Shown here piece after piece: positions 2 through 16,449 of a DNA stretch of 32,000 bases (its first letter is position 1; each line of letters opens with the position of its first letter). Under the pieces are notes generated by a model. The model worked only from the letters and a program-made list of their open reading frames with translations, was not told the origin of the DNA and searched no databases. A program made the position numbers and the translations under genes. Origin of the DNA: Candidatus Saccharimonadota bacterium (GTDB taxonomy: Bacteria > Pseudomonadota > Alphaproteobacteria > CAJXXZ01 > 1604HC); the NCBI RefSeq assembly GCF_008189405.1, contig NZ_CP043316.1:390001-422000 (forward strand), in the 5' to 3' direction.

Positions 2-1198
2 GCTGCTCAACTATATCAAAAAGCTGCAGAAGAACACCAAAAATATGAAAGCGAGCATTACATTGAAAAACCTCCATTCAAATCTGCTCAATTATATGAG
101 AAAGCTTTTCAATTATATAAGAGTATAGGAATGTATGATGAATATACAAAAATGTATAAAAAAGCTGTGGAACTATATGAAAAAGCAAAGCAACATGAAA
201 AAGTTGCAGAGCTATATTTATACAATTCTCAATATGAAAAGGCTGCAGAACAATACATAAAAGCAGGGCAATCAGAAAAAGCTGCAAAGCAATATGAGAA
301 TGCACATAAATGTACAGAAGCTGCAGAGCAATATATAGAAGCAAAGCAACCTTTGAAAGCTGCAGAGTTATATATAAAAGCAAATCGATATGAAAAAGCT
401 GCAGAGCAATATATAGAAGCAAAGCAATATGGAAATACTGCAGATTTATATAAAAAAGCTGCAGATTTATATATAAAAGCAAAGCAATATGAAAAGGCTG
501 CATTGTTTTATGAAAAAGCCGCGGAACAATATATCAAACTTGCACAAGAATATACAAAAATCATACAGTATGAAGAAGGAAATGGAGGACAAAACGCAAC
601 AGATGCTACATATTATTATAGTTGCACCGCAAGTAACTATGAATACTCTGCACAGCAATATGCACATTCTGCACAACAATATACAAATGCACATCAATAT
701 GAAAAAGCTGCTAAACAGTATGAAAAAGCTGCAGAGCAATATGAATGTTATTCGAATGTATATGAAAAAATAGACCTACAACATATTGCTAGTGGTTATT
801 ATAGTAGTAGTGGCTTTAGTGTTGAAAGTTTGAATTATTTTCGAGCACAGGAAGCAGATTCAAATAGAAAGAATAAAAGTGAAGCATTACAGCGCGTACA
901 TGCAAAACAACAATACGCATACGCTGCAAAGCAATATGCAAATATTGCAAAACAGTATGAAAAAACTGCAGAGCAATATATAAGTGTGCATAAATATACA
1001 AAAGCTGCTGAAGAATATGAAAAAGCTGCAGATATTTATAAAGATACTGCACAACGATATAAAATGAATGATATATATGTCAAAGCTGTAAAACAGTATA
1101 GCAATGCAATGGAACAATATAAAAATTCAGGAGAATATGAAAAAGCTGAGAATATGCGAGAGAAAGCCAGTGAAATGGAGAAATTAGCTAAATCATAA
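2..1198 (+). CDS. AAEQY/YEKAA helical-repeat protein (paralog 1), 5' end cut by window edge
   Basis: The frame of listed ORF 131..1198 stays open back to nt 2 (AAQLYQKAAEEHQKYESEHYIEKPPFKSAQLYEKAFQLYKSIG-MYDE...). The same motif occurs upstream of the first Met, so the gene starts outside the window. Stop TAA 1196-1198. A/Y/Q/E/K-rich, with AAxxY recurring every 7 or 13 residues. Confidence 0.75.
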   Translation, partial: AAQLYQKAAEEHQKYESEHYIEKPPFKSAQLYEKAFQLYKSIGMYDEYTKMYKKAVELYEKAKQHEKVAELYLYNSQYEKAAEQYIKAGQSEKAAKQYENAHKCTEAAEQYIEAKQPLKAAELYIKANRYEKAAEQYIEAKQYGNTADLYKKAADLYIKAKQYEKAALFYEKAAEQYIKLAQEYTKIIQYEEGNGGQNATDATYYYSCTASNYEYSAQQYAHSAQQYTNAHQYEKAAKQYEKAAEQYECYSNVYEKIDLQHIASGYYSSSGFSVESLNYFRAQEADSNRKNKSEALQRVHAKQQYAYAAKQYANIAKQYEKTAEQYISVHKYTKAAEEYEKAADIYKDTAQRYKMNDIYVKAVKQYSNAMEQYKNSGEYEKAENMREKASEMEKLAKS

Positions 1199-2822: not shown

Positions 2823-4331
2823 ATGGTAATCATGAGAATGAGTACCATGATTCCCTCAATAGTTTGTTCTATGGCTTTCAGTCTGATTGCTACAAGGGAC
2901 ACAGTTGAACAACAATTGCCTGCTACGGGATTGCCTACAGTACTTACTGAGGAGACCTTACTAACACTTAGTCACAGTTTACAGGATGAGTCTCCCTCAC
3001 CTACTACTGAATCTTCTACCACTATGGTTAAAAATAGCAAAGAAGATCAACATGAACTATCTTACCCTGAAGATTTAACACAAAAGAAAGACTTACACTT
3101 TGAGCAAGTTTCAACTACTTCAGGAGATACAGTTAGTGCAAGTATTTCTTACCATACATGCTCTGCATCCAATGCAAATGATAGACAAAACTCATTGACC
3201 ATCTCGTCATCTTCTCACCATAATGGACCACCTAATAGGAGTGGAGTTGCTATAGGATCTGATTTAGAACATCAAATGCGTAATTATTTATATAGTGAAA
3301 TGCATAAAATAGTAAGTGCAGAATTAGCTGGATCAAAACATGATATTGTGCGCGAATCTATAAATAAAGCAAAGGAAGAAGAGCGTAATAGATGCAACAT
3401 AGAAATTGAGAAACTCAAAAACAAACTCAAACAAATATCAGAAGAGAAAGAGAAGGATGTCAGAAGCATTAGGAGATTGGCAAATCAAAAAACTCAGGCT
3501 ATGAGATGGGAATTATGTATGCATGAAATTCGCAGCTTAATGTCTGATGAGATCATTGCGCGACAATCAATTGATATAGATTATACAATGGAAGCTCAAA
3601 GCACTTTCCAAACTTATAAACATTTTATCACAAGAATTCAAATGGATTGTTTACTTAATCAGCATGAGCATGAGCTTACCAAACTAAAGAATGAGCATAC
3701 ACAAGAACTTTCAGAAGCACTTAATGATAAAAATCAAGCAGTACTTGCAAAAGAATCATCTGTAAATTATGAACAAGCAAAGCAAAAACTATTACAAGGT
3801 GCATTAGACTTAGCTGAGCAAAAAGTGCAAGAACAAGCTGACCAAATCAATGAAACACAAAGTCAATTAATCAAAAGTTTAACTATTAAAAAAGCTCAAT
3901 TTAATTTATATGCTAATGTTTATATAGGTAATAGATACGTATCTAGTACAACATTTACAAGAAATGTTCCATTAGTAGAAGTAGGCCAAGAATTACCTGC
4001 TACAATTAACATAAGTAAAATGAGTGTGGTTCGAATGCATGTAGAAAAAGAAGCAGGTGATTGTATACAATTTTTCTTTTCCAAAGGAGAAGAGTGTTGC
4101 ACCGGAAAGGATTTTGCTTGTGATCTCTCTGGATATGCTAGTTCTTTTAATCCAAGAGTAACTCCAATGATAAATGGAAGGTTAGAACATGATACCGTTC
4201 ATTTTTACATGAATACATCAAGTGATGCGGTACTTAGGAATGAAAATCCTCGATTATTTAAATTTAAATTTGATTATGATAAGGTAATTCATGTTTTAAA
4301 TGTACAAAAAAACAGCAATTCAGGTGGTTAA
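2823..4331 (+). CDS. hypothetical protein: hydrophobic N-terminus, Ser/Thr-rich segment, long coiled coil, Cys-containing C-terminal domain
   Basis: 502-codon ORF with no competing ORF. Several in-frame Met at the start (MVIMRMSTM). Hydrophobic stretch IPSIVCSMAFSLIA. Heptad-like K/E/Q-rich middle. No family motif recognised. Confidence 0.6.
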   Translation: MVIMRMSTMIPSIVCSMAFSLIATRDTVEQQLPATGLPTVLTEETLLTLSHSLQDESPSPTTESSTTMVKNSKEDQHELSYPEDLTQKKDLHFEQVSTTSGDTVSASISYHTCSASNANDRQNSLTISSSSHHNGPPNRSGVAIGSDLEHQMRNYLYSEMHKIVSAELAGSKHDIVRESINKAKEEERNRCNIEIEKLKNKLKQISEEKEKDVRSIRRLANQKTQAMRWELCMHEIRSLMSDEIIARQSIDIDYTMEAQSTFQTYKHFITRIQMDCLLNQHEHELTKLKNEHTQELSEALNDKNQAVLAKESSVNYEQAKQKLLQGALDLAEQKVQEQADQINETQSQLIKSLTIKKAQFNLYANVYIGNRYVSSTTFTRNVPLVEVGQELPATINISKMSVVRMHVEKEAGDCIQFFFSKGEECCTGKDFACDLSGYASSFNPRVTPMINGRLEHDTVHFYMNTSSDAVLRNENPRLFKFKFDYDKVIHVLNVQKNSNSGG

Positions 4332-8770: not shown

Positions 8771-9355
8771 ATGTTAAAAAAATTTATAATAATGCTACTT
8801 ATAACAAGTGAATCATACGCTATGGAAAACGAAGAGATGGATATGATGGATGAAATGCCTTATTCTGAGCTTGATAAGTATAGTGAGCATACCGTAAATG
8901 AGGGCTCTGAACATTTAAATGTGTCAAAATCACCTCAGTTAGATTCTCAAATAACAGTGAAGATATTAGATAACGATCAAATATATTATCGTAGTCAAAT
9001 AAAAGAAGATAGAGCTGATGATTTTGCTCATATTACTTATATGCAAAGATCAGAGCTGGCATTGTTACGCAAAATGGAAAATAGCAAATTAAAATTACAA
9101 TTACATGATGAAGATAAGATTAACGAATTACAAAATGAGGTTGCAAATTTAAAGGAAGATAGAGGTAATGATCGAGAAAGTATTAAATCATTATTGTCAA
9201 AGTTGCAAAACAAAGAAGAAAAATCAGAGCAACTAAAACTTGAATTGCAGAACAGGCAAAATGAATTTAATTATCAGATTACAAAATTACAAAATGAAGC
9301 TGCTATTTTACAAAATAGCAAAAATGATGGTCAGAAAAATATCGATAAATTATAA
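8771..9355 (+). CDS. signal-peptide + coiled-coil protein (possible N-terminal fragment of the downstream repeat protein)
   Basis: MLKKFIIMLLITSESYA has a Sec-type n/h/c layout with an SYA cleavage-like site. The C-terminal half is heptad-like (LQNEVANLKEDRGN...KLQNEAAILQN). It ends at a single TAA 9353-9355, after which the same frame stays open. Confidence 0.65.
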   Translation: MLKKFIIMLLITSESYAMENEEMDMMDEMPYSELDKYSEHTVNEGSEHLNVSKSPQLDSQITVKILDNDQIYYRSQIKEDRADDFAHITYMQRSELALLRKMENSKLKLQLHDEDKINELQNEVANLKEDRGNDRESIKSLLSKLQNKEEKSEQLKLELQNRQNEFNYQITKLQNEAAILQNSKNDGQKNIDKL

Positions 9356-9634
9356 TCTGAATTAAATCAAAAGAACCAAAATGCTGCTGCAATCAGGCTT
9401 GCAGAACAAAATAAAATAAATTTAGAAAAGAATCCAAATACAACTGAAGGTGAAAAGGTTGCAGAAAAGTATGAAAAATCAGGACAATATGAAAAAGCTG
9501 CACAATTATATAAAGAAGCTGCAGAGCAATATGTTAGTAATGCAGAAGAAGATCAAGATGAAAAGCAAGCAGAAATAGCTGCAGAATTATATAAAAAAGC
9601 AGCACAATTATATGCAAAAACAGATAAGAATGAA

Positions 9635-11593
9635 TTGTCTGGAGAGCTATATACTATAGCTGCCAAGCAATATTTTAGTGCAAATAAAAATAAAAATGCT
9701 GCAGAATCGCATGAAAAGGCTGCATTCATGTATGAAGCATGCAAGTCTAAATATAAATCCACACGAGATAAGTATATTGAAAACGCTATTGAGCAATATA
9801 TAGAATCTGCAAAACTTTATGAACAACTCAAACAGTATGAAAAATCTGCACAGCAATACATCAAAATAAATCAACATAGCAAAGCTGCAGAGCAATATGA
9901 AGAAGCAGAAAATTATGATAATGCTGCAACCAATTACATTAAAGCGGAACAATATGTTAAAGCGGCTCAATGCTATTCACGCGATGCTGCAAAACATGAA
10001 GATGTTGCAACTCAGCATGAAAATCAAGGAAATAAGCATAAACAAAATAATCAATATAAAAGTTCTGCTGAACAATATAGCAATGCATCTAGACAATCTT
10101 CTGAAGCTGCTAAACAATATATAAAATCTGGACAACAGTATGAGAAAGCACAACAATACGAAGATGCTATAGAACAGTATAAAAGTGCTGCTGAACAGCA
10201 CATAAAATCCTCAAGTCAATATATAAAACTCCATGAACAAATGGAATTAGAATATGAACGCCAAAAACAGTGTGGCACTTTTAAACCTGATCATATAGTA
10301 AATCTTCAACGAAAGGGTCTTAATAGCACAATAGAAAAGCATTACGACCAATCTTCTACACAATATGCAGCTGCAGCAAAAATTCATGAAGAATCAAAAC
10401 AATTTGACAGGTCTGCATTAATATACATTGTTATTGCACAACAATACGAAAAAGCAAGCTTTCACCTCAAATCAGCACAACAATATGCAAAAGCTGCCGA
10501 ACAATATGAGAAAGATGGAACGCAATATACTCAATATGGCGAACAAAAAAAGCAGCAGTATATAAAAGCTGCTGAACAATATATAAAATCTGGACAACAA
10601 TATAGAGAGTGCCATAAAAAAAACGAAGCTGCTGAACAATACGAAAAATCTGCACAATCATATGAGAAAGCAAATAAATCTATAGATGCATCAAATTTAT
10701 ATGAAGTAGCAGCAAAACGATATTCTGAAGCATTGCGCGATACAAAATCTGCTGAGCTTTATGAAAAACTCACACAATATGAAAATGCTGCCGCCTCATA
10801 TATAGAATATGCTAACCGTTTTGCGAATAATTGGCACTCAAAAACACGAGCAGATAACCCACTTATATATATAAAAGCAGCAAATCTATATGAACGAATC
10901 AATCAATATGAAAACGCTGCTAAAGCATACGATAGCGCTGGTGCAGGATATACAAAAGAAAAAATGCATAAAGAAGCTGCTGAACAATATATGATGTCTG
11001 CGCAAAATTATGTTATTAGACCATGTAATGAATATGAAAAGGCCGCTGAGCAATATGTAAAGGCTGCTGAGCAATACGTAAAAGCAAATCAATCTGAAAA
11101 GGCCGTAAAATTGTATATAAATGCTGCACAAAATTATGTCATGGGATCATGCAGTGAGCACGTGAAATCAGCTGAACAATATATAAAAGCTGCAGAGCAA
11201 TATAAACAAATAGAGCAATATGAAAATGCTGCTGTGCACTATAATAATGCTGCACAAAAATATATAACTGCAAAAATAGATGATAAGGCAGCTCATCAAT
11301 ATTTGTGTTCAGCTGTGCAATACAAAAATGCAGGCAAATCTTTAGATTCAATAAATCAATATACAAAAGCAGCAAATACTTATGAAAAATTAGCACAAAA
11401 GTGTTCATCAGACACACCAAAAAAGCAACTATATTCCCAAGCTGCTGAGCAATATAAAAATGCAAATAAACATACAAAAGCAGATGAAATGCATAATGAA
11501 GCTAATAAAATTATAATCCCACGACATGCCCTATCTCACCGCAGAGTGCATAAATCAACAAGGGTAAGAAGATCTACCCCTACACAAAATTGA
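9635..11593 (+). CDS. AAEQY/YEKAA helical-repeat protein (paralog 2); coordinates from first canonical start (TTG), coding signature extends upstream to 9356
   Basis: 652-codon ORF of the same repeat type as 2..1198. The in-frame repeat sequence EKYEKSGQYEKAAQLYKEAAEQY starts near 9464 with no ATG/GTG/TTG between 9356 and 9634. Stop is TGA 11591-11593, immediately followed by TAA. Confidence 0.7.
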   Translation: MSGELYTIAAKQYFSANKNKNAAESHEKAAFMYEACKSKYKSTRDKYIENAIEQYIESAKLYEQLKQYEKSAQQYIKINQHSKAAEQYEEAENYDNAATNYIKAEQYVKAAQCYSRDAAKHEDVATQHENQGNKHKQNNQYKSSAEQYSNASRQSSEAAKQYIKSGQQYEKAQQYEDAIEQYKSAAEQHIKSSSQYIKLHEQMELEYERQKQCGTFKPDHIVNLQRKGLNSTIEKHYDQSSTQYAAAAKIHEESKQFDRSALIYIVIAQQYEKASFHLKSAQQYAKAAEQYEKDGTQYTQYGEQKKQQYIKAAEQYIKSGQQYRECHKKNEAAEQYEKSAQSYEKANKSIDASNLYEVAAKRYSEALRDTKSAELYEKLTQYENAAASYIEYANRFANNWHSKTRADNPLIYIKAANLYERINQYENAAKAYDSAGAGYTKEKMHKEAAEQYMMSAQNYVIRPCNEYEKAAEQYVKAAEQYVKANQSEKAVKLYINAAQNYVMGSCSEHVKSAEQYIKAAEQYKQIEQYENAAVHYNNAAQKYITAKIDDKAAHQYLCSAVQYKNAGKSLDSINQYTKAANTYEKLAQKCSSDTPKKQLYSQAAEQYKNANKHTKADEMHNEANKIIIPRHALSHRRVHKSTRVRRSTPTQN

Positions 11594-11860: not shown

Positions 11861-12358
11861 ATGAGCTTACAGCATTCAGTTTGGAGTAATGTGCCTGTAG
11901 ATCGCATTAGTGATTTGACAGCAGATATTCTGAAAATATACATTTTTAGGAAAAAGGAAAATGATACCTGGAATTCGATTCCAATACTTAATCTAGACCT
12001 TGAAAACACTCTAAATCTATCAAAAATATCAAATGATATAATATCTTATGTATACAATTCATGTACTTGGTCAGACTTCAATCAATTTATTTCTATGATG
12101 TATAGGCAATGCTCAATATGCAAAAGCAATATAAATAATGTTCAAGTTATTTTATCTAAGCCTGATGAAGAATTAGAGCAAATCGTAAGAAAATTCATTG
12201 TGGATCAGTTTGAAAATGATGTAAATATAATATTTAAATACAAAATATCCATCTTAGGCGGTGTTATGATTGACATTGGATCTATCAGAATTGATGCTTC
12301 TTATGGTAATATGTTGAATAAGTTTATTGGAGAATTGCATGAATCGTTTAAAGCTTGA
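11861..12358 (+). CDS. atpH: F0F1 ATP synthase subunit delta (OSCP), short and divergent
   Basis: Position as the first gene of the atpHAGDC order. The C-terminal ILGGVMIDIGSIRIDASYGNMLNKF resembles the conserved delta C-terminus (GG..v..G...iD.S....L). Confidence 0.7.
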   Translation: MSLQHSVWSNVPVDRISDLTADILKIYIFRKKENDTWNSIPILNLDLENTLNLSKISNDIISYVYNSCTWSDFNQFISMMYRQCSICKSNINNVQVILSKPDEELEQIVRKFIVDQFENDVNIIFKYKISILGGVMIDIGSIRIDASYGNMLNKFIGELHESFKA

Positions 12359-13858
12359 GGATATTATAAATGGAATTAAAGCTAAAATAGATACCTTAGA
12401 TACAAATATAGATATTTACGAAACTGGGAAGGTAGAAACTGTTGCTGATGGAATTTGCAATGTTTTGGGATTATCTGACGCTATATATGGAGAGGTTATC
12501 GTTTTTGAAAACAAACAAAGAGGGTTAATCGTAGAGTTATTGGAAGATAATGTAAAAGTAGCCATTCTAAATTCTGATCCAAAAATAATATCTGGAATGA
12601 TTGCATACAGAACAAAGCAAATACTTAAAGTTAAAGTAGGACCAGCAATGCTAGGTAGAGTTGTAAATGCATTTGGTGATCCAATTGATGGAAAAGGTGA
12701 TATTAATACTGATTTAGAGCAAGTTGTAATGGCAGAATCTCCACAAATCATAGACCGAAAAAAAGTTAGCGAACCTCTCTATACTGGTGTTAAAATGATT
12801 GATGCATTGATTCCTATAGGATATGGGCAAAGAGAGTTGATTCTGGGAGATAGAAGAACTGGAAAAACCACAATAGCAATTGGCACAATCTTAAATCAAA
12901 AAGAAAATTACCAAAAAGGGAAACCAGTCTATTGTGTTTACGTGTTTATAGGTAAAAAAGCCTCTGATGCAGCAAAATTAGCGAAATATCTTGAAGAACA
13001 AGATGCAATGAAATATACAACTTTTGTAATTGCTTCAGCAGACGATCCAGCTGTGTTTCAGTATTTAGCTCCATATGTTGGAACAGCAATTGCAGAATAT
13101 TACAGAGATAATGGAGAGCATGCATTAATTATTTATGATGATTTATCTAAACATGCTATAGCATATAGGGAAATTTCACTATTGTTGAAACGTTTTCCTG
13201 GAAGAGAAGCATATCCTGGAGATATTTTCTTCCTACACTCTAGCTTGTTAGAAAGATCAGCTTGTATGAGCGATGAAAAAGGTGGTGGATCGTTAACAGC
13301 TTTGCCAATCATTGAAACATTAGAAGGAGATATTTCTTCATATATTTCTACAAATGTGATTTCAATTACTGATGGTCAGATTTTCATGGATAAGAACCTA
13401 TTTTTATACGGGCAACGACCTGCAATCAACACAAATATATCTGTAAGTAGAGTTGGTGGATCAGCACAAACACAGGCTATGAGAAAAGTATCTGGAATGC
13501 TTAAGTTGGAATTAGCACAATATGCTGAATTAAAAGAATTTTCTAGATTCTTAACAGATATTGATGAAACTACTGAAAAAGCTTTAAGAAGAGGTGAAGC
13601 AGTAACAAGAATATTGAGGCAAGGTGCTAACCAGCTGTACTCATTTGAAGATGAAATACTTGTGATTTTTGGATGCAACTTAGGATGCTTTGATAATTAT
13701 CCAATAGATAAATTACAAGAAGCTGAAAAACAATTCTTATCTCAATTTAGAAAAGAAAACTTTAGCATATTAGATAAATTAATTAAAACAAAAGTGATTG
13801 ACGAAGAAATAGATTCCACTGTGAAGAAGTTTGTAAAGAAATTCAAGGAACAGTCTAT

Positions 13859-13862
<4 letters not shown>
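12339..13862 (+). CDS. atpA: F0F1 ATP synthase subunit alpha
   Basis: Walker A GDRRTGKTT. Conserved stretches include YDDLSKHAIAYREISLLLKRFPGREAYPGDIFFLHSSLLER and ITDGQIF. ATG 12339 is preferred over the listed TTG 12327 and overlaps the atpH stop. Confidence 0.95.
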
Positions 13863-16067
<2,205 letters not shown>

Positions 16068-16068
16068 T

Positions 16069-16449
16069 ATGTTTCTTTCTATCACATCTGGAGTAAAAGA
16101 AGTGATTCATGAGAAAGTATTTATGATTGGGTTTAACAATTATAATGGGATGAAAGCTGTATATTATGGACATAAAAGTTTCGTCATGTCAGTTCCTGCA
16201 AACACATTATTTGTTTTATTAGAAAAATCTCATAAATTATATTCTATTGGCAATGCATTAATCAAAAAAAGAAAAGAAAACTTATACGTTATCACACACT
16301 ATATTGATAATGATCAAAAACTGAAAATTCAGCCTAAATTACAAGAAAAATGGGATCAAATCGTAAAAGCATATAAAAAAAATTGGTCTAGAGAGAACTG
16401 GTTTGAACAAAATAAAGATCATGCAATTAATTTGATTCCGAAGATATAA
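16069..16449 (+). CDS. atpC: F0F1 ATP synthase subunit epsilon, divergent
   Basis: Starts 1 nt after the atpD stop. Size (126 aa) and position fit epsilon, and there is a weak match to the beta-sandwich N-domain pattern (GMKAVYYGHKSFV). Confidence 0.65.
   Translation: MFLSITSGVKEVIHEKVFMIGFNNYNGMKAVYYGHKSFVMSVPANTLFVLLEKSHKLYSIGNALIKKRKENLYVITHYIDNDQKLKIQPKLQEKWDQIVKAYKKNWSRENWFEQNKDHAINLIPKI

Follow-up and report, generated by a model that had tools for sequence, protein, structure and literature searches.

Two paralogous repeat genes in Candidatus Cytomitobacter primus

The 32,000-nucleotide stretch of DNA analysed here (the window; positions 390,001 to 422,000 of contig NZ_CP043316.1) comes from the 622-kb genome (622,378 bp) of Candidatus Cytomitobacter primus, a Holosporaceae endosymbiont of the protist Diplonema japonicum, and has a G+C content of about 30%. 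The ATP synthase beta subunit and Obg encoded by it have exact counterparts, in reverse orientation, on record OX638200.1 of assembly GCA_951805245.1. It carries two paralogous genes, called copy A and copy B below, whose products join a signal-like N-terminus to a long array of short repeats with the motif AAxxY. Only the end of copy A lies within the window, where it comprises five 13-residue units in a row as well as several units of 20 and 34 residues and appears in the mechanical list of open reading frames (ORFs) as an ORF at 131..1198; the whole gene was read at locus L002 (Table 1). The original prediction, made from the letters of the DNA, had proposed at least two large copies with a signal-like N-terminal sequence and had called for a genome-wide count. 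Both copies and the conserved N-terminal pattern were found, and the protein collection searched showed no further copy.

The mechanical ORF list divides copy B into a 194-aa ORF (8771..9355) and a 652-aa ORF starting with TTG (9635..11593). Reading of the DNA showed that the two are in one frame, that the TAA at 9353-9355 is the sole separator between them and that the frame is open from 9356, with repeat units already encoded in 9356..9634 (for example EKYEKSGQYEKAAQLYKEAAEQY). The 194-aa ORF is homologous to residues 1-312 of copy A (BLASTP, E = 3e-27), and alignment of the two copies showed that they are colinear from the first residues through the repeats, with a protein identity of 44%, and that copy A is uninterrupted in the linker corresponding to the TAA of copy B. 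Since both parts share one frame and are colinear with the intact copy A, 8771..11593 is one ancestral gene; the nonsense codon that splits it falls in the linker joining the long helices to the repeats. A link had been drawn between the 8771 ORF and the repeats, but the stop between them had been overlooked; the repeats are present at 9464-11480, as had been reported, and their limits were corrected to those of Table 1.

In both copies a signal-like N-terminus is followed by a stretch that is acidic and probably disordered, then by a conserved block, by long helices and finally by the repeats. By eye, the N-terminus of copy B has a basic n-region, an 8-residue hydrophobic core, a Ser at -3 and an Ala at -1. 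Its equivalent in copy A is MLRKLIIMLLMANKSYA, followed by MENEE. This stretch is 67% identical between the copies and the n/h/c pattern is kept in both, so that each copy has an N-terminus that looks like a Sec-type signal peptide. The conserved block (nt 430-541 of copy A) is 112 nt long and 93% identical in DNA between the paralogs, against about 70-77% for the rest of the genes (blastn), which suggests either gene conversion or strong constraint. A scan of metagenome contigs found no homolog of this N-terminal block elsewhere.

The premature stop of copy B is carried by the 194-aa product on record on two contigs of 0.2-1 Mb, which fits the two published assemblies GCA_008189405.1 and GCA_951805245.1. 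Recoding or readthrough of this codon was considered and rejected: TAA is the ordinary stop of most genes of the window, and readthrough is unlikely because TAA followed by T, as it is here, is a strong termination context. About 7% of the single-base changes in 9356..11590 would create a stop, and a neutral remnant would be expected (P > 0.95) to gain a second one within about 41 substitutions, or 1.8% divergence. Since no second stop is present in the 745 codons, two readings are left: a recent TAA, or continued translation of the downstream part of copy B, whose product would then be without the signal peptide. The first canonical in-frame starts past the TAA are TTG 9635 and ATG 9728, and no convincing ribosome-binding site precedes either of them. 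It follows that copy B has either become a pseudogene recently or is a split gene, in which case its repeat part would be without an export signal. Copy A keeps 747 codons open at 30% G+C when about 8% of point changes would create a stop; because of this long frame, and of an architecture retained relative to a 44%-identical paralog together with the 93% block, it shows every sign of being a maintained gene.

Two further observations concern copy B. Its C-terminal tail, which copy A does not have, is strongly basic and non-repetitive; it could be a secretion or targeting signal, or could result from read-on into former non-coding sequence. On the minus strand, the repeats are overlapped by three long antisense ORFs (9647..9970, 10886..11131 and 11139..11477), which were rejected as genes and are regarded as a by-product of the repeat composition, because the reverse complement of GCTGCAGAACAATAT-type units has no stop codons.

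Table 1. Features of the two repeat genes. Positions are those of the window, except for the whole gene of copy A, given in positions of locus L002.
Feature	Position	Strand	Description
Copy A, C-terminal 399 codons	1..1198	+	Identical to the end of the gene at locus L002; start lies upstream of the window
Copy A, whole gene	L002:11499-13742	minus strand of locus L002	747 aa, uninterrupted
Copy B, signal-like N-terminus	8771..8821	+	MLKKFIIMLLITSESYA, then MENEE; read from the sequence
Copy B, N-terminal module	8822..9352	+	Acidic, probably disordered stretch; conserved block; long-helix or coiled-coil segment
Copy B, conserved block	8972..9083	+	...YYRSQIKEDRADDFAHITYMQ(R/K)xELxLLRKMEN; blastn and protein alignment with copy A
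Copy B, in-frame TAA	9353..9355	+	Separates the 194-aa N-terminal product from the 745-codon open frame
Copy B, repeat region	9356..11593	+	745 codons and TGA; repeats from about 9440 to about 11509
Copy B, basic tail	11510..11590	+	IIIPRHALSHRRVHKSTRVRRSTPTQN, C-terminal 27 residues

The repeat and its predicted fold

Counts of the motif A[AVI]xxY gave 30 occurrences in the repeat part of copy B (745 aa), against a mean of 2.4 and a maximum of 9 in 2000 shuffles, and 16 in copy A, against a shuffle mean of 1.9 and a maximum of 8. The autocorrelation of residue identity has its maxima at lags of 7, 13 and 20, with weaker ones at 26/27, 33/34 and 40. When the looser anchor [AS]xxx[YFHW] was used, the distance between consecutive anchors was 7, 13, 20, 27 or 34 residues (that is, 7n or 7n+6) in 43 of 55 cases for copy B and in 20 of 29 for copy A, while shuffles averaged fewer than two such spacings. 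The AAxxY repeat with spacings of 7 and 13 and a super-repeat of about 20 residues, as originally described, therefore stands far above chance. Its building blocks are the heptad YEKAAEQ and the 13-residue unit KAAEQYIKA(G/N)QYE, which is a heptad plus six residues, and the 20-residue super-repeat is 7+13. In the 13-mer consensus, conservation at the i, i+4, i+7-type positions of the helix interface is 100% (Ala), 76% (Ala), 82% (Tyr) and 76% (Ala). At the DNA level, Tandem Repeats Finder gave periods of 21, 39 and 60 nt, with unit copies matching at 58-95%. The description of both copies as consisting almost entirely of A, Y, Q, E and K was right as to the enrichment and overstated as to its extent, since together these five residues reach 57% in copy B and 64% in copy A.

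AlphaFold2 returned an all-helical model of the repeat part of copy B (745 aa, 20-row alignment), with a predicted local distance difference test score (pLDDT) of 85-98 at residues 30-300 and mostly of 62-85 at residues 300-410, falling below 50 at residues 312-317. The model of copy A (16 rows) has an N-terminal signal helix, disorder at residues 17-83 and two helices of 95 and 108 residues. Residues 324-605 of this model (pLDDT 90-98) form five consecutive 10-residue helices, which correspond to the 13-mers and are separated by 3-residue turns, and then 31-residue helices. The turn residues are mostly G, N, S/T or P, and the 3-residue turns of copy A have a pLDDT of 95-98.

Comparison of the predicted models with the Protein Data Bank (PDB) by Foldseek gave a probability of 1.00 for many superhelices of tetratricopeptide repeats (TPRs), the leading matches being the TPR domains of SPINDLY/OGT, Ctr9, consensus TPRs, LGN, APC/C subunits and IFT-A, with E = 1e-6 to 1e-7. 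All TM-scores were low (0.43 or less after normalisation by target length), as is to be expected of a comparison between long superhelices that differ in pitch. Sequence matches in the PDB were to a consensus TPR (9qhb, E = 1.7e-10), WDR19 (4.8e-4) and Sec17 (8e-3). The Pfam model TPR_14 scored 30.7 bits with copy A, above its cut-off of 23.5, and 17.7 bits with copy B, and NCBIfam returned only a sub-threshold match to MamA, a TPR protein (21 bits for a cut-off of 200). Since a 13-residue spacing cannot hold a continuous coiled-coil register, the consistent reading of these models is that the repeats would form a TPR-like stack of antiparallel helical hairpins and not a plain coiled coil. This agrees with the fold class that had been proposed, TPR- or SNAP-like helical hairpins, both in the pLDDT of 85-98 over the regular repeats and in the TPR superhelices retrieved by Foldseek.

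Relationship to SNAP and to other helical repeats

A specific kinship with SNAP/Sec17, to which the repeats had been compared, did not hold. The Pfam model SNAP (PF14938; gathering cut-off 25 bits) scored 90.9 bits with the repeat part of copy B and 45.1 bits with copy A. However, the reversed sequence also scored 60.2 bits (E = 2.8e-16), and the unrelated bacterial TPR proteins P0002 and P0009 passed the model as well, at 59 and 30 bits, respectively; neither a full shuffle nor a shuffle of 20-residue blocks gave a match. Forward or reversed, the matched stretches were confined to positions 19-196 of the 282 of the model, its TPR-like N-terminal part, and phmmer matched Sec17 (1qqe) and alpha-SNAP at E = 8e-3 over residues 33-148 only. 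The function of SNAP involves a C-terminal helical bundle, which contacts NSF, and an N-terminal hydrophobic loop. Given the partial match, there is therefore no counterpart of either in the coverage obtained with Pfam and phmmer. Among the Foldseek matches listed, Sec17 chains held ranks 41, 47 and 48 for copy B, and none was in the best 50 for copy A. The 12-residue aromatic-di-alanine (AdAR) repeat model, PF02071, gave a weak match of 13 bits. Matches to PF14938 were labelled simply 'TPR-like' in another paper, and our search of the literature on SNAP-like bacterial effectors and on the AdAR repeat found nothing relevant. Because the reversed sequence and unrelated proteins pass PF14938, because the match is partial and because the consensus TPR and WDR19 match equally well or better, the resemblance is to the generic repeat pattern of the TPR clan, which Pfam also models as the AdAR repeat, and does not indicate membership of the SNAP family.

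Searches with the repeat part showed that its only close relative is copy A, followed by bacterial proteins at E = 4e-10 to 1e-4 and 22-33% identity. Most of these are Ser/Thr kinases of metagenomic, deltaproteobacterial or acidobacterial origin that carry a C-terminal 'TPR' domain. They have a clean periodicity of 13/26/39 residues and a 13-mer consensus of K-A-A-E-L-Y-E-K-A-G-D-Y-E, compared with K-A-A-E-Q-Y-I-K-A-N-Q-Y-E in Cytomitobacter. This periodicity ruled out both a 20-residue period in the distant matches and the novelty of the 13-residue unit, which by its period and consensus is a widespread bacterial TPR-like repeat of an already known kind. The family had been called unassigned, and this remains true of the family as a whole, above all of its N-terminal module, and not of the 13-residue unit: a HMMER search of the 194-aa module against 1.84 billion representative proteins returned only itself and copy A, and two scans of GTDB species genomes, one with the copy A protein (P0001) and one with the alignment of the paralogs, returned no relatives. 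A word-indexed search with an 82-aa run of 13-mers returned nothing at E <= 10, which says nothing either way, since any match was probably lost to the short length and the bias filter.

Long arrays of the 13-residue unit KAAELYEKAGDYE are found in numerous bacterial proteins, Ser/Thr kinases among them (P0002-P0013), and their Pfam labels are scattered over the eukaryotic models SNAP, IFT140/172, Clathrin and GEMI5. The bacterial 13-residue repeat class appears to be without a dedicated family model.

Comparison with four kinds of known proteins places the two copies more closely. The bacterial 13-residue TPR-like domains (P0002-P0034; kinase C-termini and a UvrD-type helicase fusion, with the source name 'tetratricopeptide (TPR) repeat protein') are the best sequence matches outside the genome and share the period, the 13-mer consensus K-A-A-E-(L/Q)-Y-x-K-A-(G/N)-x-Y-E and the Pfam models matched (SNAP, TPR_IF140-IFT172, Clathrin and TPR_GEMI5). 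Theirs are fused to a cytoplasmic kinase or helicase and keep a regular 13-residue period, whereas the Cytomitobacter proteins have a signal-like N-terminus, an orphan module, long helices, no catalytic domain and interleaved extra heptads that give units of 7, 13, 20, 27 and 34 residues. The proteins of the alpha/gamma-SNAP/Sec17 family share the aromatic and Ala-Ala motif on stacked antiparallel helices, but the Cytomitobacter proteins are far larger, have other modules and have no full-length match to them. The canonical TPR superhelices (CTPR, OGT, SPINDLY) are the leading matches by Foldseek and by PDB sequence, and YEKAAEQYIKA resembles the TPR B helix YDEAIEYYQKA. However, the Cytomitobacter repeats, with their dominant spacings of 7, 13 and 20, have neither the fixed 34-residue unit with distinct A and B helices nor the A-helix signature (W4, L7, G8, Y11); every repeat helix is B-like, with a length of about 10, 17 or 31 residues. 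The alpha-solenoids of IFT-A and coat proteins (WDR19/IFT144, IFT140, IFT122, WDR35; the clathrin heavy-chain repeat) also consist of arrays of short-helix hairpins. Residues 843-1123 of WDR19 align with residues 381-669 of copy A (E = 4.8e-4), IFT-A chains are among the Foldseek matches listed, and the Pfam models TPR_WDR35, Clathrin and TPR_IF140-IFT172 match weakly, all below their curated cut-offs; these solenoids are eukaryotic and have N-terminal beta-propellers. The orphan pair are thus members of a known repeat class, a 13-residue unit with extra heptads, and are not SNAP proteins.

Species restriction and possible role

We compared the surroundings of the two genes with the syntenic 21-kb regions around TsaD (70-72% identical) of C. 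indipagum (CP043315.1; L004) and of two further Cytomitobacter genomes (L005 and L006). A backbone of M48 peptidase, obg, comEC, HIT, tsaD, atpHAGDC, dnaG and rpoD is conserved in all three sister regions, while both slots that hold the repeat genes in C. primus are either empty there or occupied by other genes. No similarity to copy A or copy B was found by tblastn in these three regions. As far as can be detected, the repeat family is specific to C. primus, and the intergenic regions near tsaD and obg resemble hot spots at which species-specific genes accumulate. The atpH-tsaD slot, the site of copy B in C. primus, holds in C. indipagum a gene for a 285-aa protein with amidase_2 and PG_binding_1 domains (L004 8510-9367). 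The obg-comEC slot of the window holds a further orphan ORF (2823-4331, +; 502 aa), whose product begins with a hydrophobic, signal-like segment and also has a stretch rich in Ser/Thr and a middle part resembling a coiled coil; it has no match in Pfam or NCBIfam and no similarity in the sister syntenic regions. Other orphans in this slot are of 561, 433, 77 and 548 aa in L005, 355 aa in L006 and 107 and 72 aa in L004.

Immediately downstream of copy B is a complete atpH-A-G-D-C operon (11861-16449), whose putative epsilon subunit (16069..16449) has no Pfam match on record; according to the literature, ATP synthase is kept in these symbionts in the absence of oxidative phosphorylation. Scans for promoters and terminators did not exceed the level of shuffled sequence (27 promoter-like sites, where 24.4 were expected), an Rfam scan found tRNA-Gly only, and PADLOC returned no match.

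The setting of these genes is that of a symbiont free in the host cytoplasm, without a vacuole. Cytomitobacter symbionts are in physical association with the host mitochondrion, being positioned against it and sometimes inside it (PMC13462478), and are reported to have many predicted secreted hypothetical proteins, a reduced type II secretion system/type IV pilus apparatus (T2SS/T4P) and a modified type VI secretion system (bioRxiv 10.1101/719211). SNAP or TPR proteins are not mentioned in the Cytomitobacter genome papers or in a review of the Holosporales, and the repeat-gene pair is undiscussed in the papers on these genomes.

We think it probable that the two genes are a species-specific paralogous pair encoding an exported, non-enzymatic, protein-binding scaffold that acts at the interface between symbiont and host. 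The protein would consist of a Sec-type signal peptide, an acidic disordered stretch, the conserved block (about 37 residues), long helices spanning about 100-200 residues, which may make the scaffold multimeric, and a TPR-like array of 400-700 residues. In this array, built from the heptad and the 13-residue helix-plus-turn unit, Ala-Ala and Tyr would be packed between neighbouring helices, as are Ala20, Phe24 and Ala27 in TPRs. It would cross the inner membrane via the Sec pathway and then either remain in the envelope or reach the host cytoplasm, for instance by way of the reduced T2SS/T4P, and would serve as a passive scaffold that binds proteins.

A signal peptide combined with long helices and a TPR-like domain would also suit a periplasmic or envelope scaffold that serves the machinery of the bacterium itself, comparable to CpoB/YbgF or to the TPR scaffolds of motors and secretion systems, and not directed at the host. 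We take CpoB to have this same order of signal peptide, coiled coil and TPR; a periplasmic scaffold of the Campylobacter flagellar motor (9hmf_K) is among the Foldseek matches listed, and a Sec signal by itself carries a protein only to the periplasm. However, the three sister Cytomitobacter genomes have the same conserved machinery without these genes at the syntenic sites, no homolog was found elsewhere in protein, genome and metagenome searches, and a species-specific, fast-diverging family, three to four times the size of CpoB, is hard to square with a housekeeping role, so that this possibility, while worth keeping in mind, seems doubtful to us. The original prediction had raised the idea of a host-trafficking mimic. 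It is very unlikely that the proteins are true functional mimics of alpha-SNAP/Sec17, which after secretion would engage SNARE bundles or NSF of the host and divert membrane traffic. Both copies do exceed the cut-off of PF14938, similarity to Sec17 and alpha-SNAP is detectable though weak, and Sec17 chains have the highest target-normalised TM-scores among the copy B matches listed by Foldseek (0.39-0.43). Against this, the profile also accepts the reversed sequence and unrelated bacterial proteins and is matched only in its TPR-like N-terminal part, SNAP is not among the best 50 structural matches of the intact copy A, the proteins have 747-940 aa with extra modules compared with about 290 aa for SNAP, and the symbiont is not vacuolar. 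An unlikely but more far-reaching origin and role can be proposed for copy A, namely that of a secreted host tether or decoy specific to C. primus and born de novo by expansion of the 21-nt unit onto a pre-existing gene for a signal peptide and coiled coil. It could, for instance, dock to the Diplonema mitochondrion by imitating a TPR-receptor or co-chaperone surface, or imitate SNAP on SNARE bundles; if true, this would be a rare gene birth in an otherwise shrinking 622-kb genome.

Two other explanations were weighed. The repeats might be a non-functional expansion, produced by slippage of the 21-nt unit in an AT-rich, drifting genome, with both ORFs decaying or selfish. The tandem periods in the DNA, the nonsense codon of copy B and the limitation of the family to one species would all fit, but the copies have diverged to 44% identity and yet remain colinear with long open frames, even though some 7-8% of point changes in them would introduce a stop; conservation is strong in the N-terminal block, which is not repetitive; and the 745 codons downstream of the TAA of copy B have not acquired the second stop expected at 1.8% divergence. 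We regard this explanation as improbable. The strong periodicity at lag 7, together with AlphaFold helices of 31-50 residues in the repeats and two of about 100 residues upstream, would instead be compatible with a fibrous protein, for example a surface filament or tether, whose AAxxY heptads run on as one long, Ala-rich coiled coil without folding into a solenoid. To this we give hardly any credence, since the second dominant spacing of 13 (7+6) breaks a continuous register, in the six-residue segments the predicted turns carry G, N, S/T or P, AlphaFold models these turns as three residues long with high pLDDT and all the structural matches listed are solenoids.

Several points nevertheless weigh against an exported scaffold at the host interface. 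Computation shows the repeat, the paralogy, the in-frame stop, the predicted fold class and the absence from relatives, whereas export, localisation and binding partners, like any activity of copy B, are inferred. The hydrophobic core of the putative signal peptide has only 8 residues, and the pattern of the peptide was judged by eye. The AlphaFold alignments were shallow (16-20 rows) and composed of repeat proteins, idealised helical repeats tend toward high pLDDT regardless, and the pLDDT of copy B is below 50 over most of its C-terminal half. Finally, the premature stop means that at least copy B may be inactive.

Repeat-protein effectors are common in intracellular bacteria, so that the type of protein is in itself unsurprising. 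A Pfam 'SNAP' match on proteins of this kind is best understood as indicating a 'TPR-like repeat', with no implication of SNARE biology, and the 13-residue KAAExYxKAG unit, widespread in bacteria, is still without a proper family name. In C. primus, about 5 kb of a genome of about 622 kb is spent on two species-specific repeat proteins with putative export signals, located in variable slots between conserved genes. Such genes are obvious candidates for the specificity of each diplonemid symbiosis, for example in the association with the host mitochondrion.

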